Shown here one piece after another: positions 4,837 through 29,800 of a stretch of 32,667 nt of DNA; positions within the stretch are counted from its first letter, which is position 1, and every line of letters starts with the position of its first letter. A model generated the notes under the pieces. The model saw only the letters and a list, made by a program, of their open reading frames with translations. It was not told where the DNA came from and did no database searches. The stretch is from Acidobacteriota bacterium (GTDB lineage Bacteria > Acidobacteriota > UBA6911 > JACQSX01): positions 1 through 32,667 of the forward strand of contig DASYPF010000256.1 of assembly GCA_036006905.1 (NCBI GenBank), in the 5' to 3' direction. The translations under genes were made by a program, and so were the position numbers.

Positions 4837-5041
4837 TACGCTGTAACAGAAAAATTGGTACCGCTTATTGGGACACGGATGACACAGTAATCACGGATTT
4901 GCGAATGTCTTTTCGGGGCACCCTGAGACACAATCAGGCCCGGCAATAAATGCAGGGTGCCCCGAAAAGACATTCGTGGGTCCGTGTTTTCCGCGTTTTC
5001 CGTGTCCTAATAAACAGTACCAATTTTTCTGTTACAGTGTA
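4837..5041. repeat. 205-bp nested near-perfect palindrome (long hairpin) filling the ppk1-sixA spacer
   Basis: Outer arms 4837-4861 and 5017-5041 pair at 24/25. Second tier 4863-4879 and 5000-5016 pairs at 15/17. CACGGA 4892-4897 pairs with 4981-4986. The inner stem 4902-4925 with 4953-4976 is perfect over 24 bp, with a 27-nt loop at 4926-4952. The arms show about 9-nt periodicity (cacggatga/cacagtaat/cacggattt against ccgtgtttt/ccgcgtttt/ccgtgtcc). Confidence 0.9.
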
Positions 5042-5050
5042 CCAGCAACT

Positions 5051-5557
5051 ATGATCCTCTATTTCGTTCGCCATGCAATTGCCCAAGACGCCCAATCCTG
5101 GGGCAAGGGAGACGAGACTCGCCCGCTTACCGCCGAAGGCGTCAAAAAGATGCGAGAGGTAGCCGCCGGCCTGGCTAAGGTAGTGGAGGGCTTCGACGAA
5201 ATTTGCTGCAGCCCTTTGGTGCGCGCTCGCCAGACGGCCGAAGTCCTGACTCAGCAGTTTAAGCACAAAAAGGATCTGGTTATCTGGAAGGAGCTGATAC
5301 CGGGGACGGAACCTGCCGAGCTGCAAAACAAAGTGAATAGACTGAAAGCAGACACGGTCGCGTTGGTCGGTCACGAGCCTCACCTCGGTTATTCCGTCTC
5401 GTATTTTCTGAGCGGCAAGCAGGATACCGTTCAGATAGATTTCAAGAAAGCTGCCGTCTGTTGTATCGAATTCAATGGCTCGATACCGGCCACGCTCCTC
5501 TGGTTTATTCCTCCGAAGGTCGCCAGAGCGATGGTCAGAAGAAGCCGCCACCTATAA
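5051..5557 (+). CDS. sixA: Phosphohistidine phosphatase, SixA family (histidine phosphatase superfamily branch 1)
   Basis: MILYFVRHAIA carries the RH(A/G) catalytic motif (His codon 5072-5074). SPLVRARQTAEVL and the second His in LVGHEPHLG are present, and the size of about 168 aa is typical of SixA. The track ORF begins at 4976 inside the palindrome; ATG 5051 fits the family N-terminus. Confidence 0.75.
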   Translation: MILYFVRHAIAQDAQSWGKGDETRPLTAEGVKKMREVAAGLAKVVEGFDEICCSPLVRARQTAEVLTQQFKHKKDLVIWKELIPGTEPAELQNKVNRLKADTVALVGHEPHLGYSVSYFLSGKQDTVQIDFKKAAVCCIEFNGSIPATLLWFIPPKVARAMVRRSRHL

Positions 5558-5786
5558 AAAGCCGGAAGAGGGCGATGACGATCACCCCGACTGAAATCAC
5601 CGTGCCGGCTACTCCAAGCGACCGTCCCACGCGCGCGCGGGCGCTGACTCGGCTGAAAGCCAAGCCGACAAGAGCAAGCGGAAGTGACGTGATCCAATTG
5701 ATCCATCCAAGCAGCGGTACCAATCCCACCAACAGGCAAAGGCCAGCAGCCAGGCCAAAAGCGATTCCCAGGATTCCCGTAATCAT
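5535..5786 (-). CDS. Small hydrophobic membrane protein (3 predicted TM segments), function unknown
   Basis: 83-aa ORF with ATG at 5786, consisting almost entirely of Gly/Ala/Leu/Val-rich helices (ILGIAFGLAAGLCLLVGLVPLLGW, LPLALVGLAF, VISVGVIVIALFRLFIGG). No Shine-Dalgarno sequence seen. Convergent with sixA and overlaps it by 23 nt. Confidence 0.45.
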   Translation of the reverse strand: MITGILGIAFGLAAGLCLLVGLVPLLGWINWITSLPLALVGLAFSRVSARARVGRSLGVAGTVISVGVIVIALFRLFIGGGFF

Positions 5787-5860
5787 TGAAAGCGATTCTA
5801 TCAGAAATTGCTTGTAGCGCCCGCCGTGCTTGAATATGCTGCTTAAGGAAACAATTAACT

Positions 5861-6478
5861 ATGGCGCTAATCCGATTCCTCCAGAAGGATGAAAAATTTA
5901 CAGATGTGTTTCGGGCGATGACGTCCAACCTGACCGCCGCCTGCCAGCTTCTGGAACAGTTGCTGGCCGGGCCCACAGACGGCGGCATGAAGGATCGCAT
6001 CAAAGAACACGAGCACCAGGGAGACCTTCTTGTTAAGGAAGTGATCCAGAAACTGGACATTACCTTCATCACTCCTTTTGATCGCGAAGACATCCACCGG
6101 CTTTCAGAGATTCTGGACGACGTAGTTGACCTGGTTTACCGGGCTGCGTCAAAGATGACGATGTACAAGATCCGGAGAGAAGTGCCTGGATCTCGAGAGC
6201 TGGCCAAAATCCTGACCCAACAGAGTCAGGCACTCGAAGCAGCAGTCACCAGCCTGAGAAATTACAAAGAGGCGCTGGCGCACTGCGAGCGCGTCAACGA
6301 GTTGGAACGCGGCGGAGACGCGATCTACGCCCAAACCATGAGCTCGCTTTTCGATGACGTGCATGATCCCATCGAACTAATCAAGCTGAAGGAAATCGTC
6401 GAAACCGTGGAATCAGCGCTCAACCGCAGCGAAGACGTGGCAGACGTGATTGAGTCCATCGTGATCAAAAATAGCTGA
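5861..6478 (+). CDS. DUF47 family protein (PhoU-like helical bundle, phosphate-transport-regulator related)
   Basis: 205 aa. The N-terminus MALIRFLQKDEKF..F, then HEHQGD, ITPFDREDI and LERGGDAIY, and the C-terminal acidic helix match my recollection of the YkaA/DUF47 family. No Pit transporter gene follows it here. Confidence 0.75.
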   Translation: MALIRFLQKDEKFTDVFRAMTSNLTAACQLLEQLLAGPTDGGMKDRIKEHEHQGDLLVKEVIQKLDITFITPFDREDIHRLSEILDDVVDLVYRAASKMTMYKIRREVPGSRELAKILTQQSQALEAAVTSLRNYKEALAHCERVNELERGGDAIYAQTMSSLFDDVHDPIELIKLKEIVETVESALNRSEDVADVIESIVIKNS

Positions 6479-6524
6479 CCGAAGTTCGAGCTTCGAAACT
6501 CGAATCGCCGCCTCTGGTGATTTT

Positions 6525-7796
6525 ATGAACCGCAGAATGTTTACTGCTGAGCTTTCTGCGTTGCTCTTGACGCCAGCTTTGCTGCCCGCCCTGGAAGAAA
6601 AATCTCGATGGCGGGAATGGGTTTCTGAGTCCGATTCAACCGACTACTGGCAGAAGGTCCGCCACGAATTCCTGCTTCCCGACGAGATCTCGTACCTCAA
6701 CAATGGCAGCCTGGGGCTTTCACCCCGCCCCGTGCTGGAGGCGATGTATCACCACCTGCTGGAAACCGAAGCAGTGCGGACGCGGAAATATGCCGAGTAT
6801 CCGTGGTGGGGGTATGGGCCTACGTTGGAGATCCGAAAAACCGTGGCCGACTTCATCGGCGCGCTGCCTGAAGAAATCGCTCTGACCCGCAATGCGACCG
6901 AGGGGATAAACACAGTGGCGACCGGACTGGATTTGAATCCGGGGGACGAAGTGCTGCTGACCAATCAGGAGCATCCCGGCGGACGCAGCGCCTGGTACCA
7001 GCGCGCCAAACGATATGGCATCGTGGTTCGCGAATTCGAACTTCCCGTGCCGCCGAAGTCTCCGGCAGAGATTTTGGAAAGACTGCAAGGCTCTATAACC
7101 TCCAAAACACGCGTGATCAGTATCAGCCACATCACCACAGTCACCGGTGGAATTTTGCCTGCAAAAGAAATCTGCGGGCTCGCCAGAAACAGGAACATCA
7201 TCAGCCTGATTGATGGCGCCCATGCCATCGGGCAGATCCCCCTGAACATGCATGACATGGGATGCGACTATTACGCCACCAGCCCTCACAAATGGCTTTA
7301 TGCACCAAAGGGGACTGGGATCCTATATTGCCGTAAGGGGATGGCGGAGCGATTGTGGTGTCACACTGCCAGCGGCGCTTGGGACCAACCGGAATTGGGC
7401 TGCGAGCGCCTTACCAACATAGGCACGTCGAATTTGAGCTTGCTGGTAGGCATGGTTGCCGCTATCGATTTCCATAAAAAAATCGGAACGGACCGCATCC
7501 TGGCGCGCCAACATTCTCTTGCACGCGGGCTGCGCTCCAGCCTTTCTGAGATCAAAGGCGTCTGGTTTGGAAACGGACCGCCCCCCACTCTGTCGGCTGC
7601 GATGGTAAAAGCAATGTTGCCCGTACAAAAGATCGGGGAGTTTGCCGGCAAGCTTTGGCAGGATCACAAAATCTGGGTCACCGCGGCCGATGGAGACACC
7701 CGGATGCCTGCCTCGATCCGCTTCTCCTGTTCCATCTATGTCACGGAAAAAGATCTGGACCGAACCGTACTCCTGCTGAAGAAACATCTCGGCTGA
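6525..7796 (+). CDS. Aminotransferase class V-fold PLP-dependent enzyme (cysteine desulfurase / isopenicillin-N epimerase-like) with a possible Tat signal
   Basis: 423 aa. LNNGSLG, TRNATEGIN, IDGAHAIGQ and the PLP-lysine motif SPHKWLYAPKGTGILY are present. The N-terminus MNRRMFTAELSALLLTPALLPAL resembles a twin-arginine leader. Confidence 0.8.
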   Translation: MNRRMFTAELSALLLTPALLPALEEKSRWREWVSESDSTDYWQKVRHEFLLPDEISYLNNGSLGLSPRPVLEAMYHHLLETEAVRTRKYAEYPWWGYGPTLEIRKTVADFIGALPEEIALTRNATEGINTVATGLDLNPGDEVLLTNQEHPGGRSAWYQRAKRYGIVVREFELPVPPKSPAEILERLQGSITSKTRVISISHITTVTGGILPAKEICGLARNRNIISLIDGAHAIGQIPLNMHDMGCDYYATSPHKWLYAPKGTGILYCRKGMAERLWCHTASGAWDQPELGCERLTNIGTSNLSLLVGMVAAIDFHKKIGTDRILARQHSLARGLRSSLSEIKGVWFGNGPPPTLSAAMVKAMLPVQKIGEFAGKLWQDHKIWVTAADGDTRMPASIRFSCSIYVTEKDLDRTVLLLKKHLG

Positions 7797-7867
7797 TCAA
7801 AAGCCAAGCCGCGGCCCGTAGGACCTGTGAAAGAATCACAGGTTCGCGTCGCCCGGCGATTTTTGCT

Positions 7868-8824
7868 ATGCTTGTCACAGAAATGGAAAAGGAAATTATC
7901 CTGGCCCGCCCGCGTGGATTTTGTGCCGGCGTTGTCCGTGCCATCGACATTGTCAACGTCGCGCTTGAGAGATTCGGCGCGCCACTCTACGTTCGTAAAG
8001 AGATCGTCCATAACAAACATGTAGTCCAACAACTTCGGGATAAGGGCGTGAATTTTGTCGAAACGCTCGATGAGGTCCCGGATGGCGCCCGGGTGGTATT
8101 CTCCGCCCATGGCGTTTCACCGGAAGTTCGAGACACGGCGCGCGCGCGACATTTGAAAGTCATTGACGCTACTTGTCCGCTGGTGACCAAGGTCCACCTG
8201 GAGGCGGCTAAATATTCTCGTGAGGATTACTCGATCATCCTGATCGGCCACAAGGGCCACGAAGAGGTGGAAGGAACCATGGGAGTCGCTCCCGGACGGA
8301 TGCGGTTGATCAGCAGAGTGGAAGACGTTGATCAGCTCGATGTTAAGGATCCTTCCCGCGTCTGTTACCTGACTCAAACAACGCTGAGTCTGGACGACAC
8401 GCGCGAAATCATCGACGCCTTAAAGCGGAAGTTCCCAACCATCACGGGCCCCGCTGCTGAAGACATCTGCTACGCCACACAGAACCGCCAGGCCGCAGTC
8501 AAAGCTGTTGCGACAGAAACTGACCTGGTTCTCGTCGTAGGAGCTGCCAATAGCTCCAATTCTGTAAGGCTGGTGGAGGTTTCAGAAACCCGTGGCACTC
8601 CCGCGTACTTGATCGATAACCGCAGCGCGATTCAACCGAAGTGGCTGCATGGTGTGCAGCGCATCGGTGTAACCGCGGGTGCCTCGGCCCCTGAGGTGCT
8701 TGTCGAACAGGTCATCGATTGCTTGAAATCGCAGGGGTTCTCTGCTGTGCGAGAAGTCGTCGTCACCGAAGAGGATGTTTACTTTCCATTGCCGCCTGAG
8801 CTGCGGATGTCAAATGTCGAATGA
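7868..8824 (+). CDS. ispH: 4-hydroxy-3-methylbut-2-enyl diphosphate reductase
   Basis: ILARPRGFCAGVVRAIDIV, VYVRKEIVHNKHVV, FSAHGVSP, IDATCPLVTKVH, GHKGHEEVEGT and NSSNSVRLVE are canonical IspH/LytB motifs. The track ORF start at 7655 overlaps the upstream gene. ATG 7868 was chosen; ATG 7883 (MEKEIIL) is equally plausible. Confidence 0.9.
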   Translation: MLVTEMEKEIILARPRGFCAGVVRAIDIVNVALERFGAPLYVRKEIVHNKHVVQQLRDKGVNFVETLDEVPDGARVVFSAHGVSPEVRDTARARHLKVIDATCPLVTKVHLEAAKYSREDYSIILIGHKGHEEVEGTMGVAPGRMRLISRVEDVDQLDVKDPSRVCYLTQTTLSLDDTREIIDALKRKFPTITGPAAEDICYATQNRQAAVKAVATETDLVLVVGAANSSNSVRLVEVSETRGTPAYLIDNRSAIQPKWLHGVQRIGVTAGASAPEVLVEQVIDCLKSQGFSAVREVVVTEEDVYFPLPPELRMSNVE

Positions 8825-9107
8825 TGAATTGAAATCCGCTTACGAGCGGGCGCTGGAGAAGCTGAAAGAAAAGGGCATCGACGAAACTGTTGAAAAGCTG
8901 AGCAGCGAGCAAAAAGCGGAAATTGCTCAGATTCGCAGTCTCTACAAATCCAAAATCGCGGAATTGGAAATAGGAAAACAGGGCGACAGCGCCAAGGCCC
9001 AGGACCTAGAGCAACTGGAAAAAATTCAAGAGCGCTTCGTCAACGACCGGTCACGCCTGGAACGGGAAATGGAGCGCAAGATTTCCGAAGTGCGGCAGCG
9101 CTCGTAA
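8814..9107 (+). CDS. Small charged coiled-coil protein, function unknown
   Basis: 97 aa from ATG 8814, Lys/Glu-rich with a heptad-like pattern. The start overlaps the ispH stop (ATGTCGAATGA), suggesting translational coupling. A strong hairpin follows it. Confidence 0.5.
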   Translation: MSNDELKSAYERALEKLKEKGIDETVEKLSSEQKAEIAQIRSLYKSKIAELEIGKQGDSAKAQDLEQLEKIQERFVNDRSRLEREMERKISEVRQRS

Positions 9108-13693: not shown

Positions 13694-13759
13694 GATAATG
13701 TCCCTAAATTGGCCACGTGCACGGGCCTACAGTGGCAGTGTCACAACCACAAAAAAGCC

Positions 13760-13978
13760 GATCACGACCACGTGCACGTCAACGACCACGATCACGTCAA
13801 CGGTAGCGACACATCATACAGCAGCGCACCAGGATCATGAAAAAATCCTTAATGAAGGCTACGGTATCTCCTGCATGTTGTCGTGGACGTTGACGTGCTC
13901 GTTGACGTGCTCGTGAACGGGGCCGTGATCGTTGACGTGCAGGTGATCGTTGACGTGCACGTGATCGTGGCCGTGAAC
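13760..13978. repeat. Tandem-unit palindrome F (hexamer arrays)
   Basis: Seven hexamers at 13760-13801 (gatcac gaccac gtgcac gtcaac gaccac gatcac gtcaac). An 81-bp centre at 13802-13882. Sixteen complementary hexamers at 13883-13978 (gtggac gttgac gtgctc ... gtgatc gtggcc gtgaac). It lies between the desaturase stop and the start of the 1519-aa gene. Confidence 0.85.
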
Positions 13979-14048
13979 GGTTTTTTTGTTGCGGCTCTGC
14001 TGCGCTATGCCTTTGTGATGAGTACTTGTGAATACTCAGGGCTAGCAA

Positions 14049-15345: not shown

Positions 15346-16326
15346 TTACTGGGTTTTTTGCATCAGTGCGCGGCGGGCAGAACCTTTCAGCGCTGTTTTC
15401 TCATCGAGGATGACGTGGACGGGAATTCCCTGCAACAACTCTTCGAATCTTCCTTTGGCGGTGAAAGCTTTCATGAATTGGCCGTCAACAAGTTTCTCCC
15501 GGATCTTCGGAGCAATTCCACCTCCCACAAAAACTCCACCGACGGCCATGGTCTTTAGGGCCAGATTTGCGGCCTCGGCGCCGTAGATGGAAACAAACAA
15601 ATCCAGGGCGTCGACGGCCAACTGGCAGGCTTTCTCGAGCGCTGCAGTCGAAATGGCCGCGGTCGGATCACCTTTCTGAATTCGGCCACGCAGCCAGTCA
15701 GGCTCCAATCCCTTTCCCGAATCGCGCAAGAACTGGTAAATGCTTAAAAGACCCGGGCCGGAAACAACGCGCTCGTAGCTGACGTGCTCAAACTCTTTTC
15801 GCAGATAATTGAAAAGCTCAATTTCTAAATCGCTGCGCGGCGCAAAATCGGTATGGCCACCTTCCGATGCTGCGGGCAGATGATCTTTGCCATTCCAGTA
15901 CAAGAATGCTTCTCCCAGCCCCGTGCCGGCGGCGATTACCGCCTGATTGCCCGCAGTGGCCTTCCCCGGATTCAAGCACAACAACAAATCTTTCTCGAGC
16001 ATCGCGATACCGTACGCCGTGGCTTCCAGATCGTTAATCAAAATGACTTCTTTCAAATTCAGGACGCCGGCAATTTTCTTTGCCTCGACCACCCAAGGGA
16101 GATTGGATGTCTGAACGCGTCCCTCACGGATCGGTCCAGCAATCCCAAAACAAGCACGTTTTACCTTATGTGGCGCCTCCCTGAGGCATTGTTCAATGAT
16201 GTTTTCCAGGCCTGGATAGCTCCTGCTGGAGAAAGTCTTCGAAGCGACCAGGCGGAGTCGGCCGCTGGAGTCGTCAAAGAATCCCAAGTTGGTTTTTGTA
16301 GCTCCGATATCACCGGCAAGTATCAT
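15346..16326 (-). CDS. glk: Glucokinase
   Basis: 326 aa starting MILAGDIGATKTNLGFF. The Glk-family layout is present (GIAGPI, NDLEA.AYGI, AGTGLGEA, GGVFVGGGIAPKI). It is the last gene of the zwf-opcA-pgl-glk run. Confidence 0.85.
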   Translation of the reverse strand: MILAGDIGATKTNLGFFDDSSGRLRLVASKTFSSRSYPGLENIIEQCLREAPHKVKRACFGIAGPIREGRVQTSNLPWVVEAKKIAGVLNLKEVILINDLEATAYGIAMLEKDLLLCLNPGKATAGNQAVIAAGTGLGEAFLYWNGKDHLPAASEGGHTDFAPRSDLEIELFNYLRKEFEHVSYERVVSGPGLLSIYQFLRDSGKGLEPDWLRGRIQKGDPTAAISTAALEKACQLAVDALDLFVSIYGAEAANLALKTMAVGGVFVGGGIAPKIREKLVDGQFMKAFTAKGRFEELLQGIPVHVILDEKTALKGSARRALMQKTQ

Positions 16327-16340
16327 GATCGTGCCAAAAG

Positions 16341-16456
16341 AAGTCGAAAGTCGCAGGTCGAAGGTCGAAAGTCAACAAGTTAGAAAGTCAACACGTGCAG
16401 ACCTGTTGACTTGCTGGCCTGATGACCTTCGACGTTCGACCTGTGACCTGCGACTC
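16341..16456. repeat. Tandem-unit palindrome A (AGTCGNN/AGGTCGA units) filling the pgl-glk spacer
   Basis: The left arm reads aagtcgaa agtcgc aggtcga aggtcgaa agtcaaca ... and the right arm ... gatgacct tcgacgt tcgacct gtgacct gcgact. A perfect 11-bp outer stem pairs 16349-16359 with 16445-16455. The central 8-bp stem is agtcaaca/tgttgact. Confidence 0.85.
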
Positions 16457-16467
16457 CAGATGTGACA

Positions 16468-17202
16468 TTAATTCAGTTGGCTCGCTGCCGCCTCATCCAC
16501 CAACCACACCAACCGGCCGCGCGGCCGGATCAATTGTGAGGGATAAACTTTCGGCTGCAATTCCCCTTTCAAAACTTGCTTCAGCGCCGGGGCCTTTGCG
16601 GCGCCTGACACTAGAACAATCACTTCTCTCGCATGATTGATCACAGGCGCGGTCAAAGTTATCCTTTCCGTATTTAACTTCTCTACCGGATTGCTCACTA
16701 CCCACCGGGTTTGCTCGGCTAGCGCAGGTGTGCCGGGAAACAGTGACGCAGTGTGGCCATCGTCTCCCATCCCCAAGAAAATCAAATCGAAAGACGGAAA
16801 CTTCTCTTTATCGGTCCTGAAAAAGCGGCGCAGCTCTGTCTCGTATCGGCGAGCCGCCTCGGCAGGAGGCAATTCCGAGAGAATTCGAAAAATATTGGAA
16901 TCAGGAATCGCGACGTGATCAATCAAACTTTCGCGCGCCATTCGGAAATTGCTCTCTTTGTGGTCAGGAGGAACCGGGCGCTCATCCCCCCAGAATAGGA
17001 AAATCCGCGGCCAATCCAATGCCTCGCGGTAATGGTCGGCAAGATTCGCATTGACGGCACGAGGAGTATTCCCACCTGAGAGAGCGACCGCAAAGCAGCC
17101 CGAACGCGAGATGGCTTTGTGTGCCAATCGGGCAAACCGTTCGGCTGCCCGCTGTGCAATCTCCTGGGCATTCTCACAAATAACAATCTCTTTGGAACCC
17201 AT
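16468..17202 (-). CDS. pgl: 6-phosphogluconolactonase
   Basis: ALSGGNTP, FFWGDERPVPPDHKESN, FDLIFLGMGDDGHTASLFPG and RITLT are typical Pgl/DevB motifs. The track start at 17205 is TTG; ATG 17202 was chosen. Confidence 0.85.
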   Translation of the reverse strand: MGSKEIVICENAQEIAQRAAERFARLAHKAISRSGCFAVALSGGNTPRAVNANLADHYREALDWPRIFLFWGDERPVPPDHKESNFRMARESLIDHVAIPDSNIFRILSELPPAEAARRYETELRRFFRTDKEKFPSFDLIFLGMGDDGHTASLFPGTPALAEQTRWVVSNPVEKLNTERITLTAPVINHAREVIVLVSGAAKAPALKQVLKGELQPKVYPSQLIRPRGRLVWLVDEAAASQLN

Positions 17203-17210
17203 CAAGATTC

Positions 17211-17427
17211 AGGTCGTGTGATAAAGTCACAGGTCAACAGGTCAACAGGTCAACAGGTCAACAGGTCAACAGGTCACAGGTCAACAGGTCACAGGTCACA
17301 GGTCACAGGTCAACAGGTCACAGGTCAACAGGTCGACGGTTTCAGACTAGCCCGGGACTTGGTGGACCTGATGACTTGATGACCGTTTGACCGGGTAACC
17401 TGCGGGACCTGTCGACTTGCGACTTTA
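17211..17427. repeat. Tandem-unit palindrome B (AGGTCA(A)C array) filling the opcA-pgl spacer
   Basis: Positions 17231-17337 hold 14 contiguous units: 8 AGGTCAAC, 5 AGGTCAC and 1 AGGTCGAC. They face a shorter degenerate complementary arm at 17353-17427 (ggacctgatgacttgatgaccgtttgacc...gacctgtcgacttgcgacttta). Terminal taaagtc/gacttta pairs 17222-17228 with 17421-17427, which overlaps the opcA stop. Confidence 0.9.
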
Positions 17428-21289: not shown

Positions 21290-21292
21290 GGC

Positions 21293-21322: not shown

Positions 21323-21393
21323 GAGGTAGTCCCGAAAAACTAGCGCACTTTTATCGGGGCGGGTGATGTAAAAACAACTAAGGAGGAATCTCA

Positions 21394-21744: not shown

Positions 21745-21780
21745 ATTCCTTCCGGGGCGCTCCCATGGGGCGCCTCATGG

Positions 21781-22058
21781 AATCGATTGCGGATTGCAGA
21801 TTGCGGATTACAGAAGCGTCCGTTGTCAGTTGTCCGTCGTTCGTTGTTTAGCCAGAGCGTCAGGGCGCAGGAAAAATCAATCCGCTCGTACGGGCGGCCC
21901 CTGCGTGGCCGCCCGAATACGTGCGCCATCATGGGCACTCGAGCAAAACATCAGTCCTGGCAAACCTTTACTGGTGTGCCTTCATGCTCCAGAATTCAGC
22001 TTACTGACTACCGCAACCCACAAAGTCCGCAATCGATTCACACCCCATTCCGCAATCA
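21781..22058. repeat. Tandem-unit palindrome E (GCGGATT units, long centre) between convergent genes
   Basis: The left arm at 21781-21810 reads aatcgatt gcggatt gcagatt gcggatt. The right arm at 22011-22058 is degenerate (ccgcaaccc..gtccgcaatcgatt..ccgcaatc). A perfect 12-bp pairing joins 21781-21792 to 22027-22038. The centre contains the GC hairpin gggcggcc-cctgcgt-ggccgccc. Confidence 0.6.
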
Positions 22059-22064
22059 AACACG

Positions 22065-22208
22065 CTACCGCACTATTCCCAGACCCAACAGGCCGTGCAG
22101 TATCAGCCAGATCGCGACAAAGTAATTTAAGAATCGCGGAAAGATCAAGATCAGAATTCCAAACAGTATGGCAAGAACCGGACTTAGATGCCCCGCTGTG
22201 AGTACCAT
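22065..22208 (-). CDS. DUF3096-like small membrane protein (47 aa), absent from the ORF track
   Basis: ATG at 22208 is preceded by GGAGG 8 nt upstream (ggggaggcgaagacATG). Translation is MVLTAGHLSPVLAILFGILILIFPRFLNYFVAIWLILHGLLGLGIVR, with stop TAG at 22065-22067. The core GIL.L..PR.LNY.VAI.LI..G..GL matches my recollection of DUF3096. Confidence 0.6.
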   Translation of the reverse strand: MVLTAGHLSPVLAILFGILILIFPRFLNYFVAIWLILHGLLGLGIVR

Positions 22209-22271
22209 GTCTTCGCCTCCCCTGAACTGTCCTACAAGATAGCATGGAAATTTTGCGTTACAATTTTCCTA

Positions 22272-22697: not shown

Positions 22698-22767
22698 TTC
22701 GGGCAAGCTCCGCCGAGCGTCTCCGATCTAAGTCACATGCATTCGGGAGTTGTTCTCGAAGACAAGA

Positions 22768-23112
22768 TTACGGCACGCCAATCGCCCGCATAACACCGCC
22801 CTCCAAGTCCATCAAGATCTCGCGCGACAACCGGTAGCCAATGCGATCTCCCAATTCACTTTTGTGAACCGGGCCGATGTACTCGCATTTGGCTGTCGAG
22901 TCATGAGGCAAGCCGGTTTGCTTGCTAGGAAGTTTGACGTGCGTGGGCGATGGGCGGTGACGCGTCGACAACGGAATCACCAATACGTCATGAGCAAACT
23001 CATTTCGACCGTTTGGCGAAATGATCACCACAGGCCGCCCTTCTTTGCCGTGGGCAAAGGCCCGGTAGATCTCGCCACGTTTTGGAAAATCCCGATCGGC
23101 GGAATCAGTCAA
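22768..23112 (-). CDS. Type II toxin, MazF/PemK-family endoribonuclease
   Basis: 114 aa. PKRGEIY, GRPVVIISP, VLVIPLSTR, PTHVKLP, GLPHDSTAKCEYIGPVHKSEL fit the PemK/MazF pattern. The only in-frame start is TTG at 23112, which overlaps the antitoxin stop (TTGACTGA). Confidence 0.8.
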   Translation of the reverse strand: MTDSADRDFPKRGEIYRAFAHGKEGRPVVIISPNGRNEFAHDVLVIPLSTRHRPSPTHVKLPSKQTGLPHDSTAKCEYIGPVHKSELGDRIGYRLSREILMDLEGGVMRAIGVP

Positions 23113-23356
23113 TATCAGGACCTGCCAGATGGCGCGAGACGGCCTTTAGCCATCGTCCTTCTTCGGTCTCCTCAGCATCGGCGTATTCTTTGTAATAACT
23201 GGCAAACTCTTCGTCCAGTTTTCTCCGTTTTTCTTCTTCCGCCCAGTTTTCTAGAATGGATTCAAGAACGGCACTTCTGTTTCGGCCAGCATTGGTCAAA
23301 GCTAACGCCAGATCTTTTCGGATTGTCGCAGTAATTCGTACTTTTCGTCTTCTCAT
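23105..23356 (-). CDS. Type II antitoxin, ribbon-helix-helix (CopG/MetJ-like)
   Basis: 83 aa with ATG at 23356. The N-terminal beta-strand plus two helices (RITATIRKDLALALTNAGRNRSAVLESILENW) are followed by an acidic C-terminal tail. It lies immediately upstream of the toxin and overlaps it by 8 nt. Confidence 0.7.
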   Translation of the reverse strand: MRRRKVRITATIRKDLALALTNAGRNRSAVLESILENWAEEEKRRKLDEEFASYYKEYADAEETEEGRWLKAVSRHLAGPDID

Positions 23357-23368
23357 TTGTATTACTAA

Positions 23369-23397: not shown

Positions 23398-23445
23398 GCC
23401 CATTTTTGCAATTTGGGTCTTAGAGCGGCATGTCTCTAAAGGTTA

Positions 23446-23621
23446 CTGAAAAACTCACCGCGAAGGCGCGAAGAACGCGAAGGCTGTTTGTGGACCCGAG
23501 ACTCTAACGTTGGCATAACTGTCCCGCAGTCATCCATTTAAGGAGGGCTGGATGATTTCGAACGTATGGTCTTGATCTGATCACCTTCGCGTTATTCGCG
23601 CCTTTGCGGTGAGTTTTTCAG
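23446..23621. repeat. 38-bp inverted repeats flanking a 100-bp centre (MITE/REP-like element)
   Basis: ctgaaaaactcaccgcgaaggcgcgaagaacgcgaagg (23446-23483) pairs with its complement at 23584-23621 at 36/38. The arms are themselves built from GCGAAGNN micro-repeats. Confidence 0.85.
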
Positions 23622-23676
23622 CATCCTGCTGGGGCTACGACCACAGGCGTGCCGCAAGGGCGCACGGCCGTGCGCT

Positions 23677-24561
23677 CTACGTTGCATCTGGCAGAAAGAG
23701 CCTTGGGCCCCCATTTACAACGCGAACCAGTTCAATCTGAGTTGCGTACGTTACCGCCGCCAACCAGATGCGCAGCCAGAGTGTCACAAGCAGGATGAGG
23801 CTGGTGATCCTGGTTCCCCAAAATGCTGAAGCATTGGATAGAGGATTCACCGCGAGCAACACTAGCACGCCGAGCACTTTCAGTAAGGAGATCCCGGCAA
23901 CCCATCGTCCGTTCTGCCACACAAACCTGCATGCCGAAAGCCAGGAGAGAACTGTGCTGCTTCGCTCTTCGACCACGGTCTGAACGCGAGCGAAATCGGC
24001 AATGATTTCGATGGCAAACACGAGGGCTATGGCCGACAGCGGCAGCATGATAGACGAGCCCAGCGACAGGTGGAATAGCCGATAGCACCCGGCTAGACAA
24101 CAGCACAGCGCGTAACAGGCGACAACGGGAACGAACCCGAGCAGCGAGATCCTGAGGAACCGGCCGACATACCGGATCCCATATCGAAAGAAATTTAGGA
24201 TTCGCTTCTGTAATACCACCGTTCCGAGGGAGCCTACGACGGCTGCATGCAGCACGTTCTCCAAGGGGAAAAAGATCCACACTGACCAGGATTCGAACCG
24301 TTCATCAATTGGAAGGGGTGGCCGGCCTTCAAGATGAAAGATATCCATCCACCACAGAAAGAACCCCGACTGCCGCGTGAAACCGAATTCCGCGGCCCGA
24401 CCTGAGATTTCCAGCATCAGGAAAGCCAGTGCAAGCTTGGCCAGCCACGGCAGCCAAATCACGCGTCGATTCTGCCAGGCATTGGCGGCGCCCGCGCGAA
24501 TCAGATGAGAGAATCGCATTAGGTTCAATGGAGATTTTATTGATGATTGGCCTATGACCAT
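23677..24561 (-). CDS. Polytopic membrane protein, function unknown
   Basis: 294 aa with ATG at 24561; ATG 24519 (MRFSHL) is an alternative start. About six hydrophobic helices are present (e.g. WLAKLALAFLMLEI, ISLLGFVPVVACYALCCCLAGCY, IMLPLSAIALVFAIEIIADF, LILLVTLWLRIWLAAV). I recognise no family. Confidence 0.6.
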   Translation of the reverse strand: MVIGQSSIKSPLNLMRFSHLIRAGAANAWQNRRVIWLPWLAKLALAFLMLEISGRAAEFGFTRQSGFFLWWMDIFHLEGRPPLPIDERFESWSVWIFFPLENVLHAAVVGSLGTVVLQKRILNFFRYGIRYVGRFLRISLLGFVPVVACYALCCCLAGCYRLFHLSLGSSIMLPLSAIALVFAIEIIADFARVQTVVEERSSTVLSWLSACRFVWQNGRWVAGISLLKVLGVLVLLAVNPLSNASAFWGTRITSLILLVTLWLRIWLAAVTYATQIELVRVVNGGPRLFLPDAT

Positions 24562-24724: not shown

Positions 24725-25726
24725 ATGTATCACAGATACATTGAAAAAAAGGAACGCGATTTTTCTTACCGCGATACCAACCGGCGAGTACTGCCATTCG
24801 AGATTGGGCAAGAATGGCTGCCTGCCGACGGAAACTTGGACCTGCGCGAACGATTGCACCGACTTGTGGACCAGGCGCTGCGTGACTCCGATAACTTCTT
24901 CTCGCTGCCTGCCGAGCCGGAATACCGCGTCGAAGGCGACGAGCTCACATTCCCATCGCCCTTGCCGAGTCACATCGAACCGAACGATCTGGCGCGGGCG
25001 CGGCTTTTTTTAAAGCCTGGTGCTGATCGCGTCGTGGTGATCTTGCCGCACTGGAACGCGCAGCCCCACAGCTATGTCTCCCTGGCCAAAGGCTTCAACT
25101 TTTTCAATGTCAGCGCCGTTCGGCTCTCCCTTCCGTACCACGACGGGCGGCGTCCTTCGCATACTGAGCGCTCTGATTATCTGGTCAGCCCCAATCTGGC
25201 TCGAACTCTCCATGCCAACCGGCAAGCGGTAATCGACACTCGTGCCGTTGTACATTGGCTGAAACGCCAGGGTTTTGAACGAATCGGCATCGTGGGCACC
25301 AGCATCGGAAGCTGCATCGGTTACCTGGCGTTTGCGCATGACGTAAATATCCGTGCCGCGGCCTTCAATCATGTCAGCAATTTCTTTGCCGACGTGGTGT
25401 GGACCGGCCTCTCTACGCGGTTTGTTCGCCAAGGATTGGAGTCTCACATCGGGTTGGACGAGCTGCGCTACTCCTGGCTGCCGATCAGCCCCCACAGCTA
25501 CATCGAAAGGGTCAGGCGGAATTACCGGCCGCATCTGCTGATCACAGCCCGTTATGACACCACATTTCGTCCAGAACTCACCGAGCAACTCTTTGCCGCA
25601 TACCGGCGCTTGGATATTCCTTACGAGCGCGCCGAGCTGCCTTGTGGCCACTACACCACCGGCATGTTTCCCTTTAATATTTACGATGGATATCTGATCA
25701 CGCGCTATCTGTTGAGGCATCTATAA
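24725..25726 (+). CDS. Alpha/beta hydrolase fold protein
   Basis: 333 aa with GGAG 9 nt upstream of the ATG. The nucleophile elbow is IVGTSIGSCIG (GxSxG), and a C-terminal His lies in LPCGHYT. Confidence 0.75.
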   Translation: MYHRYIEKKERDFSYRDTNRRVLPFEIGQEWLPADGNLDLRERLHRLVDQALRDSDNFFSLPAEPEYRVEGDELTFPSPLPSHIEPNDLARARLFLKPGADRVVVILPHWNAQPHSYVSLAKGFNFFNVSAVRLSLPYHDGRRPSHTERSDYLVSPNLARTLHANRQAVIDTRAVVHWLKRQGFERIGIVGTSIGSCIGYLAFAHDVNIRAAAFNHVSNFFADVVWTGLSTRFVRQGLESHIGLDELRYSWLPISPHSYIERVRRNYRPHLLITARYDTTFRPELTEQLFAAYRRLDIPYERAELPCGHYTTGMFPFNIYDGYLITRYLLRHL

Positions 25727-25762
25727 TCCCCCATTTTCTGGGCGTTCTTAGCATTGGAAAGT

Positions 25763-25835
25763 CTTTCACCACTAAGGACACCAAGGACACAACGTGAAAG
25801 CCTTAGTGTCCTTGGTGTCCTTGGTGGTGAAAAAG
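25763..25835. repeat. Hairpin built from AAGGACAC(C) micro-repeats between convergent genes
   Basis: ttcaccactaaggacaccaaggacac (arm at 25763-25790) pairs with gtgtccttggtgtccttggtggtgaa (arm at 25806-25835), with one mismatch in 26 and a 15-nt loop. No U-tract on either strand. Confidence 0.85.
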
Positions 25836-25873
25836 TCGCTCGCGGCTCGGGAGATCAAAGAGCGTCCGCGACC

Positions 25874-26311
25874 TCAGAATTCCGGCCCGTCGATTATCAA
25901 ATTCCAGACGAGCAGCACAAAAATGACAGCATTGAGGGCATGGCTCGTAAAGCAGAGCTTGCATGAGACTTTTGTCCAAAAAAGCAGCGAGTACGTCAAA
26001 TAGACCCCAAGCAGCACGGTGAGCAACGATGCCGCCAGCATGACCTGCACAAGCGGAAATTGCCACAACCAGCCGCTGAGAATGCCGGCGAGGAGAAGCA
26101 GATAATACAATTGTCCCAGCAGCGAGTTGGGCACTCCAAAAACTCTGGCGCGCGGAGTGAAAACAATGCTGGCGCACGTTTCTTTCCCCATTTGACAAAA
26201 CTTGGGGATGTAACGGGCCTCCGGATCCATCCAACCATATGCGATTGCGGTGAAGTAGGTCGAGATAGAGAGGCCGATGAGAGCGAGCGCGAAAATGAAC
26301 CTGGGAATCAT
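25874..26311 (-). CDS. Vitamin K epoxide reductase (VKOR) family membrane protein
   Basis: Loop cysteines sit in FCQMGKETCASIVFTPRARVFGVPNSLLG, and a CxxC (CKLCFTSH) lies in a later TM helix. Four hydrophobic helices are present. ATG 26311 was chosen; the track start at 26386 translates the tandem repeat. Confidence 0.7.
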   Translation of the reverse strand: MIPRFIFALALIGLSISTYFTAIAYGWMDPEARYIPKFCQMGKETCASIVFTPRARVFGVPNSLLGQLYYLLLLAGILSGWLWQFPLVQVMLAASLLTVLLGVYLTYSLLFWTKVSCKLCFTSHALNAVIFVLLVWNLIIDGPEF

Positions 26312-26330
26312 CGGGTTTAAGAAACGCCAA

Positions 26331-26506
26331 AGGTCGAAGGTCGAAGGTCGCAGGTCGAAGGTTGCAGGTCGAAGGTCACAGGTCAACAGGTCTGCCGGTC
26401 ACAGATCAATAGGACGAAGTTGCCAACTAAGATGCAACCAACTCTTGGACCTGCTGACCTGTGACCTGTTGACCTGCGACCTTCGACTTGCGACTTGCGA
26501 TCTGCC
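26331..26506. repeat. Tandem-unit palindrome C (AGGTCGA/AGGTCAC units) filling the pruA-VKOR spacer
   Basis: Left array at 26331-26402: aggtcga x2, aggtcgc, aggtcga, aggttgc, aggtcga, aggtcac, aggtcaac and further units. Right array at 26448-26506: gacctgctgacctgtgacctgttgacctgcgaccttcgacttgcgacttgcga. A perfect 12-bp pairing joins 26343-26354 to 26473-26484. Confidence 0.9.
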
Positions 26507-26512
26507 GATTCC

Positions 26513-28066
26513 TCACTTCACTTTCTCCGACATGACCTTCGCTTGAGTAAACAGCAATAGATAGTCCTTGCCGCCGGCTTTTGAATCGGTTCCGGACATG
26601 TTGAAGCCGCCAAACGGATGGACGCCCACCAGCGCACCGGTGCATTTCCGATTAAAATAGAGATTCCCCACGTGAAACTGCCGCTTGGCCCGCTGGATTT
26701 TCTTCTTCGACTTGGTGTAGACGGCGCCGGTCAGTCCGTACTCGGTGTTATTTGCGATGCGCAAGGCGTCGTCGAAATCCTTCGCTTTAATGACGGCCAA
26801 TACTGGCCCGAAGATCTCATCTTGAGCAACGGTAGCGCCAGGAGCAACGTCGGCAATCACAGTCGGCTCCACAAAGAATCCCTGCTCCTGATGGACATTG
26901 CCGCCGATAAGCAGGCGTCCTTCCGATTTTCCTTTATCAATGTATTGAAGGATCTTGTGCATCGCCTGATCATTAATCACCGGACCAAAATTAACTCCGC
27001 GCTGGTCAGGAGCGCCCATGCGCAACTCACTCGTTTTTTTCAGCAGGCGATTTAGAAACTTGTCATAAACCTTTTCAACCACGATGGCTCGCGAGCATGC
27101 GGAGCACTTCTGTCCCTGATATCCGAACGCTGACACGACTACCCCCTGCGCAGCCCGGTCAAGATCAGCATCGGAATTCACAATGATGCTGTCTTTGCCT
27201 CCCATCTCCGCAATTACACGTTTAATCCAAATCTGACCCGTTTGGACTTTGGACGCCAGCTCGTTGATGTGCAGGCCCACTGCCTTAGATCCTGTAAACG
27301 CGATGTAGCGAACCTTGGGATGCGCCACCAACGTGTCGCCGATGGTTCCGCCGCTGCCTGTAATGAAATTGACCACTCCGGACGGCACCTTGACTGCGCG
27401 AAAGATCTCCATCAATTGGGCCGCTATCGCCGGGGCATCGCTCGATGGCTTTAGCACGATTGTGTTTCCGGCAACGATGGAGGCAAAAGTCATGCCCGCC
27501 ATAATTGCCAGCGGGAAGTTCCAGGGCGGAATGACGGCGCCAACGCCAAGGGGAATGTAACGGAGTTCGTTGCGTTCTGAAGACACTTTTACAAGCGGCT
27601 GAGGCCCGGCCAGACGGAGCATTTCACGAGCATAGAATTCGGCGAAATCAATAGCTTCGGCGACGTCTGCATCGGCTTCCTCCCAGGACTTGCCGACCTC
27701 GAAAACCATCCAGGCCGCAAGTTCCATTCGCCGCTTGCGCATCAAAGCCGCGACTTTCAAAAGATACTGAGCTCTCTTCTCCGAAGGTAACGCACTCCAT
27801 TCCCCAAACGCCTGGTGTGCTACTTCCACCGTTCGAGCGGCCAACTCGCGGGTCCCCTTCTGGAAAATCCCAACAATTTGCGCCCTATGTGCGGGATTGT
27901 AGGAGCGCAGTTTGTCTTCGGTATGGAATTTCTGGTTTCCAATAGTGATTGGATACTCTTTACCGAGCGCGCTTCGCACCAAGTCGATCGCCTGCTGCAT
28001 CTTCTTGGCTACTCTCGGCTTGGAAAAATCAAATAGCGGTTCATTCTTGAACGCTTTGAGTTTCAC
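26513..28066 (-). CDS. pruA: L-glutamate gamma-semialdehyde (1-pyrroline-5-carboxylate) dehydrogenase
   Basis: 517 aa. The N-terminus FKNEPLFDFS, then EMGGKDSIIV, FGYQGQKCSACSR and the C-terminal GTDSKAGG..YL are typical of the about 516-aa RocA/PruA-type P5CDH. The start is GTG at 28066 with GGAGGA 10 nt upstream. Confidence 0.85.
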   Translation of the reverse strand: MKLKAFKNEPLFDFSKPRVAKKMQQAIDLVRSALGKEYPITIGNQKFHTEDKLRSYNPAHRAQIVGIFQKGTRELAARTVEVAHQAFGEWSALPSEKRAQYLLKVAALMRKRRMELAAWMVFEVGKSWEEADADVAEAIDFAEFYAREMLRLAGPQPLVKVSSERNELRYIPLGVGAVIPPWNFPLAIMAGMTFASIVAGNTIVLKPSSDAPAIAAQLMEIFRAVKVPSGVVNFITGSGGTIGDTLVAHPKVRYIAFTGSKAVGLHINELASKVQTGQIWIKRVIAEMGGKDSIIVNSDADLDRAAQGVVVSAFGYQGQKCSACSRAIVVEKVYDKFLNRLLKKTSELRMGAPDQRGVNFGPVINDQAMHKILQYIDKGKSEGRLLIGGNVHQEQGFFVEPTVIADVAPGATVAQDEIFGPVLAVIKAKDFDDALRIANNTEYGLTGAVYTKSKKKIQRAKRQFHVGNLYFNRKCTGALVGVHPFGGFNMSGTDSKAGGKDYLLLFTQAKVMSEKVK

Positions 28067-28242
28067 AAGTTACAGTCCTCCAGCGTTTTAGAGCGTGAAA
28101 AGTAAAAATTGCCGCGAAGTAAGCGAAGAGCGCCCGACGTCAGAAGCTAAATTATGCGGAAAAAGAATCCGGGAATAAAGCTGAATATTCAGTCGAAAAT
28201 ACCAGGGATTCTATCTAAACTACTGATTTTAAATGAGATCAG

Positions 28243-29304
28243 CTATAATCGCCGCCCGGGCCTCGTGTGCTTTACCGTTACAACATAAGACCCGCTGTTG
28301 TTGGAGAGGCTGTCGTCGTTGACTCCTAGAAACAACGTTCCCGCAATTGGAGCAACCACTTCCGAGCGGGAGCCAATGACGAATACATCGGAATTTTGTT
28401 CGCCCCGGATCTGTCCAATGAGTGCTCCTTGTTTGGCGTCAGGCACCGGGAGGGTTCCAAAAATAGCACCCAAAATTCCGGGGGATACACCGTCCGGCCC
28501 GCTCGATTTTCCTGGAGCTAGCGTAATCGTTCCGGAGGCCTCCAGATTGATCCGTTCGCCTTCACGCATCTGAATCCCAGTGTCCGTCCAGCCCAGATCC
28601 GAGCGAACTTCAACCCGTTCCTCGACCGTCTCGGCAGCGCTGGCGCCTGATTCCCGCCGCCTTCCCCGAATGCCCGTTCCTTCGTCCTCAGGTTCCCAGG
28701 TGGTGATGGTCACCTGATAACTACCGCTGTTATTTGCCAGAAATCCGTCGTTGATTCCCAGAAAAATCTCTCCGTCTCTGCGTGCAGTGAATTCCCGGCG
28801 CGTACCCACTACCAGCGCCTCGCCTGGATAATTCCCCACCATGGCGTAAAGCGCGCCCCAGTTGTCGCGCGGAAAAGGTCTTTCGGTAGCGCTTCCGGGA
28901 ATTCCGTTGGGTCCGGTTCTGCGCGTCCGGTCTACAAAGATCTCGCCGCGCGCCTCAAGGCGAACTCTGTCCCCCTGCCGCACCTGGACGCCGGTGGAGG
29001 AGACTGGCTGTGTGGAAACAACCTCCAGCGAGCGCGTCACCTCCCGCAAAACAGGCGCCGCTCCCTCCAGACCAAAACGAATCCGGGCGATCTCAGTCAC
29101 ATTAATCACCAACTCGGACGGCTCGCCCGTTCGAGTTCCTGGCAAGGACAGGGTGAAACGGCCGTTTTCGAAAGACCGAATTTCTCCCCTCAGAATATTT
29201 CCGTTCTTGAGATAGACGGTGTCTGCCGTCGTGAGACTCACCGACAGCAGAGCCAGCATTGACGTGATAAGAATTTTTCTGCCAATTTGTTTGAATCGCT
29301 CCAT
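28243..29304 (-). CDS. Secreted protein with two tandem LecA/PA-IL-like lectin domains
   Basis: 353 aa with a signal/anchor (ILITSMLALLSVSLTTA). Two paralogous halves end in GINDGFLANNSGSYQVTI and GVNDDSLSNNSGSYVVTV, with GALYAMVGN and GALIGQIRG cores. Compare P. aeruginosa LecA GALVMKIGN ... YNDVPGTYGNNSGSFSVNI. Confidence 0.7.
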   Translation of the reverse strand: MERFKQIGRKILITSMLALLSVSLTTADTVYLKNGNILRGEIRSFENGRFTLSLPGTRTGEPSELVINVTEIARIRFGLEGAAPVLREVTRSLEVVSTQPVSSTGVQVRQGDRVRLEARGEIFVDRTRRTGPNGIPGSATERPFPRDNWGALYAMVGNYPGEALVVGTRREFTARRDGEIFLGINDGFLANNSGSYQVTITTWEPEDEGTGIRGRRRESGASAAETVEERVEVRSDLGWTDTGIQMREGERINLEASGTITLAPGKSSGPDGVSPGILGAIFGTLPVPDAKQGALIGQIRGEQNSDVFVIGSRSEVVAPIAGTLFLGVNDDSLSNNSGSYVVTVKHTRPGRRL

Positions 29305-29362
29305 TCTCCTACCCTCCCCTTATATTTAAGCAGGCATTTTGGTTTAGGGAACTAGGGTGGTT

Positions 29363-29800
29363 GCGGATTTCGGATTTCTGCGATTGCGGATTGGAGATTT
29401 CGGATTGCGGATTGCGGTTTCGGATTGTGGATTGCGGATTGCGGATTGTGGATTGTGGATTGCGGATTGAGGATTGAGGATTGAGGATTGAGGATTGCGG
29501 ATTTCGGTTTCGGATTGCGGATTTCAAAAAGCGTCCGTGGTCCAACTTTTGCTTTGCGAACCGATGACGCGCTGTTGTCGACGAAAACCTCTGCCGGCGC
29601 TCGCAATCACAATCCACAATCTGAAATCTACAATCCGCAGTCCAAAAAACCCGCAAGCCGAAATCCGCAATCTGCAGTCCAAAAAACCCGTAATCCGAAA
29701 TCCGCAATCCGCAGCCCAGAAAATCCGCAATCCGAAATCCGAAATCCGCAATCCGCAGGCCAAAAAATCCGCAATCCGAAATTCGCAATCTGCAATCCAC
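29363..29800. repeat. Tandem-unit palindrome D (about 440 bp, GCGGATT heptamer arrays) between divergent genes
   Basis: The left arm at 29363-29523 holds about 23 units of GCGGATT and variants (gtggatt, gaggatt x4, tcggatt). The centre is 79 bp (29524-29602). The right arm at 29603-29800 holds AATCCGC-type units, interrupted four times by GCAG(T/C/G)CCA(A/G)AAAA(C/T)CC. Confidence 0.9.

Follow-up and report, generated by a model that had tools for sequence, protein, structure and literature searches.

Convergent pairs of short tandem arrays are known from Xanthomonas, in which Rehm et al. (2015; PMC4692102) counted about 185 arrays of the heptamer GGGAATC in each genome and placed about 90% of these between genes. 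In X. campestris and X. axonopodis these arrays have 2–26 copies and form 70–75 convergent pairs per genome that are potential stem-loops or cruciforms; they lie 28 nt from the end of the upstream open reading frame (ORF) versus 160 nt from the next one and are under-represented in divergent spacers. Array length differs between species and the single-or-paired type is kept, the one genome-wide G-tract unit was interpreted as G-quadruplex-forming, and no function was found; few Nostoc arrays are paired, according to the same paper. In cyanobacteria, STRR heptamers form hairpins between hupS and hupL for which transcript stability, translational coupling or termination was proposed (PMC2670836). 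Marine Beggiatoaceae carry intergenic TAACTGA heptamers genome-wide, as direct repeats of 2–6 copies immediately upstream of start codons with one inverted case among 170 sets, and both an unknown function and a scattered phylogenetic distribution were reported for them (PMC4679880). As far as the literature cited in PMC4679880 and PMC4692102 goes, heptamers are the class of simple sequence repeats (SSRs) most prone to expansion. Cultured Acidobacteria encode a distinct RAYT-like group of transposases, TIRYT, and one of them has a terminal inverted repeat (TIR) family (PMC3733652). Here we analyse the contig DASYPF010000256.1 from a soil-type metagenome-assembled genome (MAG) of an uncultured Acidobacteriota, whose entire 32,667 bp we call the window, and describe nine of its spacers that hold long inverted repeats with arms made of tandem 6–9-nt units.

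An earlier note on this DNA, made from the sequence alone, had not recognised the class to which these elements belong. Their design is already known, from the paired convergent heptamer arrays of Xanthomonas and the STRR hairpins of cyanobacteria, and is not a new class. As in Xanthomonas, tandem units of about 7 nt lie between genes in convergent complementary pairs, close to stop codons and rarely in divergent spacers; the differences are that many units of 6–11 nt are used here, that G3 tracts are absent, that the arms are longer and the unit types nested, that about two thirds of the spacers at gene 3' ends are occupied and that the host belongs to another phylum. The G-quadruplex interpretation does not carry over, since none of the at least 8 unit types of the window has suitably spaced GGG runs. 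With STRR, which come in a few families per genome, the elements share intergenic heptamer tandem repeats and some hairpins between co-transcribed genes, but STRR belong to filamentous cyanobacteria and use other units (e.g. GGGGA(C/T)T), and pairing is the rule here. The Beggiatoaceae repeats are likewise intergenic heptamer tandem repeats, but direct ones that precede start codons. On balance we favour, with some reserve, the reading that the elements are the Acidobacteriota counterpart of the STRR hairpins and the Xanthomonas paired arrays, that is, dispersed families grown by slippage and tolerated or used as RNA hairpins in 3' untranslated regions (UTRs) or between cistrons.

Results

Long inverted repeats with tandem-unit arms occupy nine spacers

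All arrays listed by the earlier note were recovered by Tandem Repeats Finder (TRF), and an inverted-repeat finder paired them. The window arrays have periods of 6–9 nt and 2.3–23 copies, every paired array is intergenic, and the arrays within genes are short and unpaired. The common architecture is as first described, one arm being made of direct micro-repeats and the other of the complementary units, around a centre that is not conserved. Elements are 70 to 456 nt in size with arms of 2 to 23 units, and by the sum of their coordinates they take up about 2.0 of about 4.7 kb of intergenic DNA (~40%). They are listed here by window position, none being assigned a strand.

4828–5050, hairpin 4837: fills the ppk/histidine-phosphatase spacer; arms 4832–4925 and 4953–5046, 27-nt centre
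13740–13995, element F: from the desaturase stop to the start of the 1519-aa gene; arrays 13759–13802 and 13881–13979
16331–16466, element A: fills the pgl-glk spacer; arms 16341–16398 and 16399–16456, 4-nt loop
17211–17427, element B: fills the opcA-pgl spacer; left arm 17218–17336, right arm 17346–17424
21781–22058, element E: degenerate member; left arm GATTGCG x3.6, centre about 200–230 nt
23440–23627, hairpin 23446: between the 280-aa gene stop and the antitoxin start; arms 23440–23483 and 23584–23627, 100-nt centre
25764–25832, hairpin 25763: small, in the convergent S9 peptidase/VKOR spacer; 2–3 AAGGACACC units per arm, short loop
26330–26510, element C: from the aldehyde dehydrogenase stop (26513) to the VKOR start (26311); centre about 40 nt
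29355–29810, element D: divergent 353-aa/810-aa spacer; left arm 29361–29523, centre 29524–29600, right arm 29601–29800

The left arm of B consists of 14–15 AGGTCA(A)C units (13.9 copies of ACAGGTCA at 17229–17334 by TRF) and its right arm of about 8 degenerate GACYTG units, and the base of its stem pairs the opcA stop codon TAA. TRF arrays of AAGTCGA (x4.7) and GACCTTC (x4.4) make up element A, in which AAGTCGA/AGGTCGA 7-mers turn into 8-mers nearer the loop and one arm mirrors the other in the order of its unit variants (inverted arms of 55 nt, 80% complementary). About 10 AAGGTCG units face about 8 GACCTGC units in C (TRF x6.9–10 and x8; inverted arms 43 nt, 86% complementary). D has about 23 GATTGCG-type units on the left (TRF, TTGCGGA x23.3 and CCGCAAT x15) and CGCAATC-type units on the right, where CCAAAAAA inserts every 4–5 heptamers produce a higher-order period of 37–44 nt; its left arm is without a TTTTTTGG counterpart of these inserts, and its inverted arms measure 60 nt at 82% complementarity. 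In F, 7 CGNNCA hexamers on the left face 16 GTGNNC hexamers on the right, and the unit counts given before for F (7/16), B (14–15) and D (about 23) agree with our reading of the sequence. Hairpin 23446 has 3 GCGAAGNN units per arm (TRF, CGCGAAGG x3.1 at 23459–23484; arms 44 nt, 91% complementary), and in hairpin 25763 TRF found 9-mers, x2.3 and x2.9, at 25770–25826.

Two elements correspond to their first description only in part. The hairpin reported at 4837–5041 is a very strong plain one, with 94-nt arms that are 84% complementary by the inverted-repeat finder, but the periodicity of about 9 nt ascribed to its arms is weak, TRF detecting only the 9-mer TCCGCGTTT, x2.4, on one arm. The left array of E is made of GATTGCG units, while its right side, which adjoins the DUF3096 stop (minus strand), is degenerate, with only scattered CCGCAA copies of the form CCGCAA(T)C.

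Folding was compared with dinucleotide shuffles. The element spacers gave z of −5.4 to −19.3 on both strands, whereas 24 coding control windows had a mean z of −0.28 with a minimum of −2.2 and other spacers were near 0. Hairpin 4837 reached z −16 to −19, A −8.4 to −9.6, B −8.4 as sense RNA, hairpin 23446 −8.3, and the spacers of 25763, E and F −7.6, −5.4 and −4.7 to −5.8, respectively; with DNA parameters, C had z −9.4 and D −12.3.

An assembly artefact, in which short-read metagenome assembly through low-complexity repeats would have created the arrays, is barely credible. Two other assemblies of the same population, the JGI contigs (sample 3300036854) and the Logan contigs (SRR11742812), match the window with 100% identity throughout A, B, C, 23446 and 25763, they differ in E at two positions only, both in the centre, and the same architecture is present in relatives from other samples and studies. 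The artefact would find its support in D, inside which both other assemblies break (29455/29488 on the left, 29728 on the right) and where 5–8 positions of the left arm (29428–29484) differ from the window; the outer right arm matches at 100%. The outer arms of D are thus confirmed, and the inner unit count of D and the linkage of its two arms come from the present assembly only.

The architecture is a lineage trait, and spacers keep an element while its unit is replaced

The comparison drew on the window and about 70 kb from relatives (roughly 100 kb in total), the relatives being syntenic loci at 56–69% protein identity: L082, L083/L209, L084/L085, L212 and L210. A strict detector, requiring two TRF arrays of 5–12 nt whose units are complementary and which lie within 400 nt of each other, returned 16 elements in 80 kb of window and relatives versus 5 small ones in a 1.245-Mb negative control, a roughly 50-fold difference. 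The control comprised 80 loci from other phyla obtained by a Zwf-based scan, with identity <=59% among the matches listed, and its elements are 2.5–4-unit versions that occur sporadically in Chloroflexi, Nitrospira and other Acidobacteria. Thus, the architecture is a trait of the lineage, and in relatives it often stands at the same gene junctions.

According to the earlier note the unit sequence differs between elements and it is not one REP consensus that is being copied, a view that the shared families seen here do not support. AGGTCR is the unit of A, B and C alike, which BLAST matches to one another. GATTGCG is common to D and E, together with an exact 14-nt junction, AAGCGTCCGTKGTC, that directly follows the inner end of the left arm in both and scores above all 500 shuffles; a shared right-hand junction of the two was tested as well and is not significant. 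We counted at least 8 unit types in the window and over 15 among the relatives, the families seen in the window being AGGTCR, GATTGCG, GCGAAG, AAGGACACC and GTGNNC, with others in relatives, and a family recurs 2–4 times within 16–33 kb. By our own count 11 of 19 units contain CG, which we judge unremarkable given an expected fraction of about 0.41. Because families are shared across loci, we are dealing with several consensus families that were copied or homogenised and not with unrelated local inventions.

The same families also reappear at the same junctions in other genomes. The pgl-glk spacer carries AAGTCGM in the window and in L082, the opcA-pgl spacer AGGTC-type units in both, and the DUF3096 spacer GATTGCG in the window, L082 and L083, to whose GATTGCG elements E is positionally orthologous; despite these common families the centres at all three spacers are unrelated. 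The L084/L212 genome has a GAATGCG family, with near-identical 31–33-nt left arms and unrelated centres at four loci, one of which is the L212 spacer orthologous to D; in L209 that spacer has no element. Families change in concert within a genome, GATTGCG here versus GAATGCG there, the D-orthologous site included. Hairpin 25763 has a 79% similar copy at another, non-orthologous junction in L084.

At some junctions the element is retained across genera while its unit is replaced. In the desaturase/1519-aa spacer the units are GTGNNC hexamers for the window and octamers of ACGCAAAG for L082. The AAGGTCG units of the window's aldehyde dehydrogenase/VKOR spacer correspond in L209 to a nested element that has AAGAATT 7-mers on the outside and ATGAAGGGAT 10–11-mers on the inside, and the opcA/pgl spacer holds AGGTCAAC in the window and GGTTTCG in L084. 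At this last junction the distance from the opcA stop to the pgl start is 1 nt in L083 (9997–10003), while the spacer is element-filled and about 200–235 nt long in three other genomes (window 17203–17424, L082 9702–9901, L084 9765–10000), which suggests that an entire hairpin was precisely lost or gained.

Beyond the relatives, an exact copy of the left arm of hairpin 23446, CCGCGAAGNCGCGAAGAACGCGAAG, in which 22 bases are specified, is present in a MAG with the label Chloroflexia (L018 4993–5057), 17 nt past a stop codon, where about 1e-7 copies would be expected by chance in 1.25 Mb; horizontal spread, mis-binning or convergence could account for it. The GCGAAG arm had no match in a scan of viral contigs. 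In a metagenome scan with the pattern GGAWTKN x3.5, 37 of 120 loci were bacterial-looking (GC 0.40–0.71) and contained 15 inverted pairs, so the design is scattered more widely among environmental bacteria. Most matches of that scan were (GGGGATT)n inverted at both ends of 1–3-kb contigs of 16–30% GC (L087–L165; rumen and other sources), which look like telomeres from the gene-sized chromosomes of ciliates and have no connection with the elements.

Elements favour gene 3' ends

With the gene map corrected by JGI calls (VKOR, PemK toxin-antitoxin), the elements are intergenic and adjoin stop or start codons, as previously claimed. The earlier note lists co-directional, convergent and divergent spacers alike, but an equal use of the three is not supported. 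Among all spacers of >=60 nt in six loci, 27 of 42 with a gene 3' end folded strongly (z <= −4) as against 4 of 16 divergent ones (Fisher p = 0.009), and in 13 of 16 co-directional spacers the element is nearer to the upstream stop than to the next start (p = 0.02). D is the sole element of the window in a divergent spacer. The stop codon itself lies inside the stem in several cases (4837, B); in hairpin 4837 the stem base takes in the ppk stop codon, and the hairpin ends 2 nt ahead of the ATG at 5052. Four genes, glk, pgl and those for the histidine phosphatase and VKOR, start 2–21 nt after a hairpin, and on reading 16312–16330, 17190–17215, 5040–5055 and 26305–26330 we recognised no Shine-Dalgarno motif before any of the four start codons. 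Because the elements of zwf-opcA-pgl-glk leave just 5–21 nt before the next start, the downstream genes must be read through the hairpin, the stem of which juxtaposes the stop codon and the next start codon at its base.

Arms vary independently and have a nearly uniform polarity

The two arms of an element often differ in copy number, with 15 versus 8 units in B, about 7–8 versus 15–16 in F, 13 versus 8 in L083 and 11 versus 4 in the opcA-pgl element of L084. Permuting the order of units within one arm lowered arm complementarity significantly only in A (1/500), in C (14/500) and in a single element of L082 (8/500). The test was not significant in 6 of 11 elements, and B, F and the GATTGCG elements showed no significant drop. 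Outer ends and blocks of one unit type are mirrored between arms and the order of inner variants mostly is not, which, together with the unequal copy numbers, fits independent slippage in each arm after the pair had formed.

The same facts speak for a pure mutational by-product, in which terminator hairpins plus slippage duplications would yield the elements and template switching at quasi-palindromes would keep the arms complementary, with neither spread between loci nor added function. Arms that are unequal and mostly unmirrored in variant order are what it predicts, the sporadic small 2.5–4-unit versions elsewhere (5 in 1.245 Mb) and the bias to 3' ends, fitting seeding at terminators, agree with it, and so does the proneness of heptamers to expansion, to the extent that the literature cited in PMC4679880 and PMC4692102 covers it. 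It fails, however, to explain near-identical 31–33-nt arms at four unrelated loci of one genome, the common junction of D and E and the concerted GATTGCG-to-GAATGCG difference that extends to the D-orthologous site, and we regard it as unlikely.

A further regularity is the composition of the arms, as in 22 of 23 elements purines prevail in the 5' arm and pyrimidines in the 3' arm (p = 6e-6), with the same purine-first polarity in 15 of 16 distinct unit types and in 11 of the 15 metagenome pairs. An inverted repeat reads alike on both strands, so this polarity is intrinsic and not set by the direction of transcription; by our reading the convergent G-rich arrays of Xanthomonas (PMC4692102) appear to share it. 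As a possible explanation, a pyrimidine-rich arm that emerged first would expose a Rho-loading site before the hairpin closes. On either side of an element the strand that leads 5'→3' to the centre is the purine-rich one, a telomere-like arrangement, and this polarity of the arms, the concerted master units, the independent copy numbers of the arms and the unrelated filler centres raise the thought that the arrays were made by an active templated process and not by passive slippage. At a break or an excision gap, the two 3' ends would then be extended off one template and rejoined, by an activity that could be reverse-transcriptase-like, telomerase-like or linked to an HUH transposase. We think this quite unlikely; if true, templated addition would be a new kind of bacterial repeat-generating system.

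RNA hairpins, terminators or DNA sites

In the window a T-tract follows the stem only in F, 23446 and 4837 (3 of 9 elements), the others having none or an A-run. F is flanked by CAAAAAAG and GGTTTTTTTG and the stem base of 23446 is GAAAAACTCACC / GGTGAGTTTTTC, so that both, judged by these flanks, resemble bidirectional terminators; hairpin 4837 has an A-run and a T-run near the base of its stem. Stems are 5–10 times longer than is usual for Rho-independent terminators. A consensus promoter/terminator scan, which was not designed for long stems, showed no enrichment, and Rfam gave nothing at gathering thresholds, only sub-threshold matches to plant and animal miRNA-precursor hairpins.

REP/BIME elements bind gyrase and IHF and are placed at gene 3' ends. 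An action of the elements as DNA, either as protein-binding arrays (iteron- or heptad-like, cf. the omega repressor of pSM19035) or as cruciform or gyrase supercoiling sites, would thus be in keeping with their placement, which is that of the gyrase- and IHF-binding repeats, with unit families that are kept across genera at the same junctions though the centres are not, and with the folding, which is about equally good on both strands and gives strong z with DNA parameters. Against this, at least 8 unit types in the window and >15 across relatives fit no single binding protein, units are degenerate within arrays, and tandem binding sites would not need complementary arms; a DNA-level role is accordingly very unlikely in our estimate.

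Comparison with CRISPR and mobile repeat classes

The statement that the elements are not CRISPR, not classical REP and not a MITE with fixed TIRs was borne out, as they fail the defining features of each. CRISPR arrays consist of 24–48-nt repeats with unique spacers of comparable length, as against contiguous 6–9-mers here that have no spacers and are inverted between arms. A MITE is argued against by sizes of 70–456 nt, unconserved centres and the lack of flanking direct repeats on reading. REP/BIME and REPIN-RAYT systems have in common with the elements dispersed intergenic hairpin families downstream of genes, inverted doublets and long persistence in a lineage, and the roles proposed for REP/BIME, mRNA stabilisation and termination, resemble those proposed here. 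A REP, however, is a unit of 20–40 nt that forms an imperfect palindrome by itself and is tagged with GTAG or CGTC at one end, and the spacer of its inverted doublets is conserved and copied along with them, whereas single arms here are direct arrays and not palindromes, and the centres are unrelated where the arms are near-identical (L084/L212). No GTAG/CGTC tag was seen at arm ends by reading, the GTAG...CTAC around the L083 element being two stop codons, and no Y1_Tnp/RAYT was among the Pfam hits in the 32.7-kb window and about 70 kb from relatives.

Non-autonomous mobile elements of the REPIN/MITE type, with the SSR arrays as TIRs and a RAYT/TIRYT-like HUH tyrosine transposase elsewhere in the genome, are a less probable account but one with several points in its favour: conserved arms of same-family copies at non-homologous sites, presence and absence at the opcA-pgl junction (1 nt versus about 220 nt), TIRYT transposases in cultured Acidobacteria (PMC3733652) and, by reading, no visible target-site duplications, as expected under HUH transposition. 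It is countered by the identical-arm copies with unrelated centres, since REPINs and MITEs move as whole units, by the missing palindromes and tags of single arms, by the absence of a Y1 transposase from the Pfam hits in the window and the relatives' loci, and by an arm length that ranges from 2 to 23 units.

A second class of hairpin in these genomes has a REP-like look, without tandem-unit arms. It consists of short GC-rich palindromes, e.g. TGGCCGCTTCAGCGGCC and GGAGACGGCCCACCGGCCGTCTCC, single or clustered in spacers that fold with z −4.9 to −12 (window 32307–32667, 21750–21780, 21895–21920 and 23640–23680; L209 204–1134 and 9507–10084).

Gene content of the window

By Pfam annotation the window has ordinary chromosomal genes, and gene calls on other assemblies added those for which coordinates are given below.

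PLD-like protein, ppx, ppk1, histidine phosphatase, PhoU-like protein, aminotransferase, ispH: window, Pfam
1519-aa surface-type protein, fatty-acid desaturase: window, Pfam
glk, pgl, opcA, zwf: window, Pfam
metallo-beta-lactamase-fold protein, CoA-binding protein, S9 peptidase: window, Pfam
aldehyde dehydrogenase, 810-aa phosphoesterase/beta-propeller protein: window, Pfam
about 22066–22209, minus strand: DUF3096 gene, gene calls on other assemblies
22767–23355, minus strand: PemK/MazF-type toxin (114 aa) overlapping a putative 83-aa antitoxin, JGI gene calls
23676–24518: 280-aa gene, gene calls on other assemblies
25874–26311, minus strand: VKOR, gene calls on other assemblies

The long plus-strand ORF at 22750–23334, over the PemK toxin-antitoxin pair, is probably spurious. 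More distant homologues of one window protein carry the label Blastocatellia. In relatives, a gene for a 471–479-aa pyridine-nucleotide disulfide oxidoreductase stands between a 116-aa gene and the GATTGCG element (L082 2150–3774, L083 2443–4076); it is missing from the window (21745–22065), where the centre of E, at about 230 nt, is unusually long.

Discussion

The structure of these elements and their evolutionary behaviour are well supported. For the way in which such families could arise under the reading that we favour, the counterpart of STRR hairpins and Xanthomonas paired arrays, we propose that family seeds may be spread or homogenised between loci by a copying process, either HUH/RAYT-type transposition or gene conversion, and that each arm would then grow and shrink separately through replication slippage of its 6–11-nt unit. 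As the arms can pair in every register, such growth would cost no hairpin stability. The elements would be part of the transcript of the upstream gene and form long, imperfect hairpins in the RNA, which, because their base joins the stop and the next start codon, would be tolerated within operons such as zwf-opcA-pgl-glk. They would probably act in the manner of REP/BIME, as a 3'-end or intercistronic stabiliser and partial terminator, and F, 23446 and 4837, which are flanked by A/T tracts, would terminate transcription in both directions. A REP-like function of this kind, as an RNA hairpin in 3' UTRs or between cistrons, is put forward tentatively, as a possibility that we consider rather doubtful.

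Several observations weigh against our proposal. A 3'-end role is impossible for the four elements of divergent spacers (D, two in L212 and one in L209). The sense strand is favoured only weakly and not significantly, being the more stable one in 10 of 15 co-directional elements (p = 0.30; G-U pairs 95 versus 77), and with a U-tract in just 3 of the 9 elements of the window, the majority do not qualify as canonical intrinsic terminators. The roughly 100 kb examined revealed neither a transposase nor any other candidate for the copying enzyme, and the centres of same-family copies are unrelated, unlike what whole-element transposition predicts. Finally, L210 (7 kb, 58% identity) has no arrays.

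The STRR and the GGGAATC heptamer repeats of Xanthomonas have had no accepted function or origin since 1990, and the window offers an extreme and informative form of the same design, in which ~40% of the intergenic DNA is occupied and many unit families stand side by side. As the units found here are unable to form G-quadruplexes, the explanation proposed for Xanthomonas is removed. Direct experiments are out of reach for now because the hosts are uncultured MAGs; the retention of sites with a swap of units, the concerted drift of families and the purine-first polarity nevertheless constrain any model of the origin or function of these repeats.

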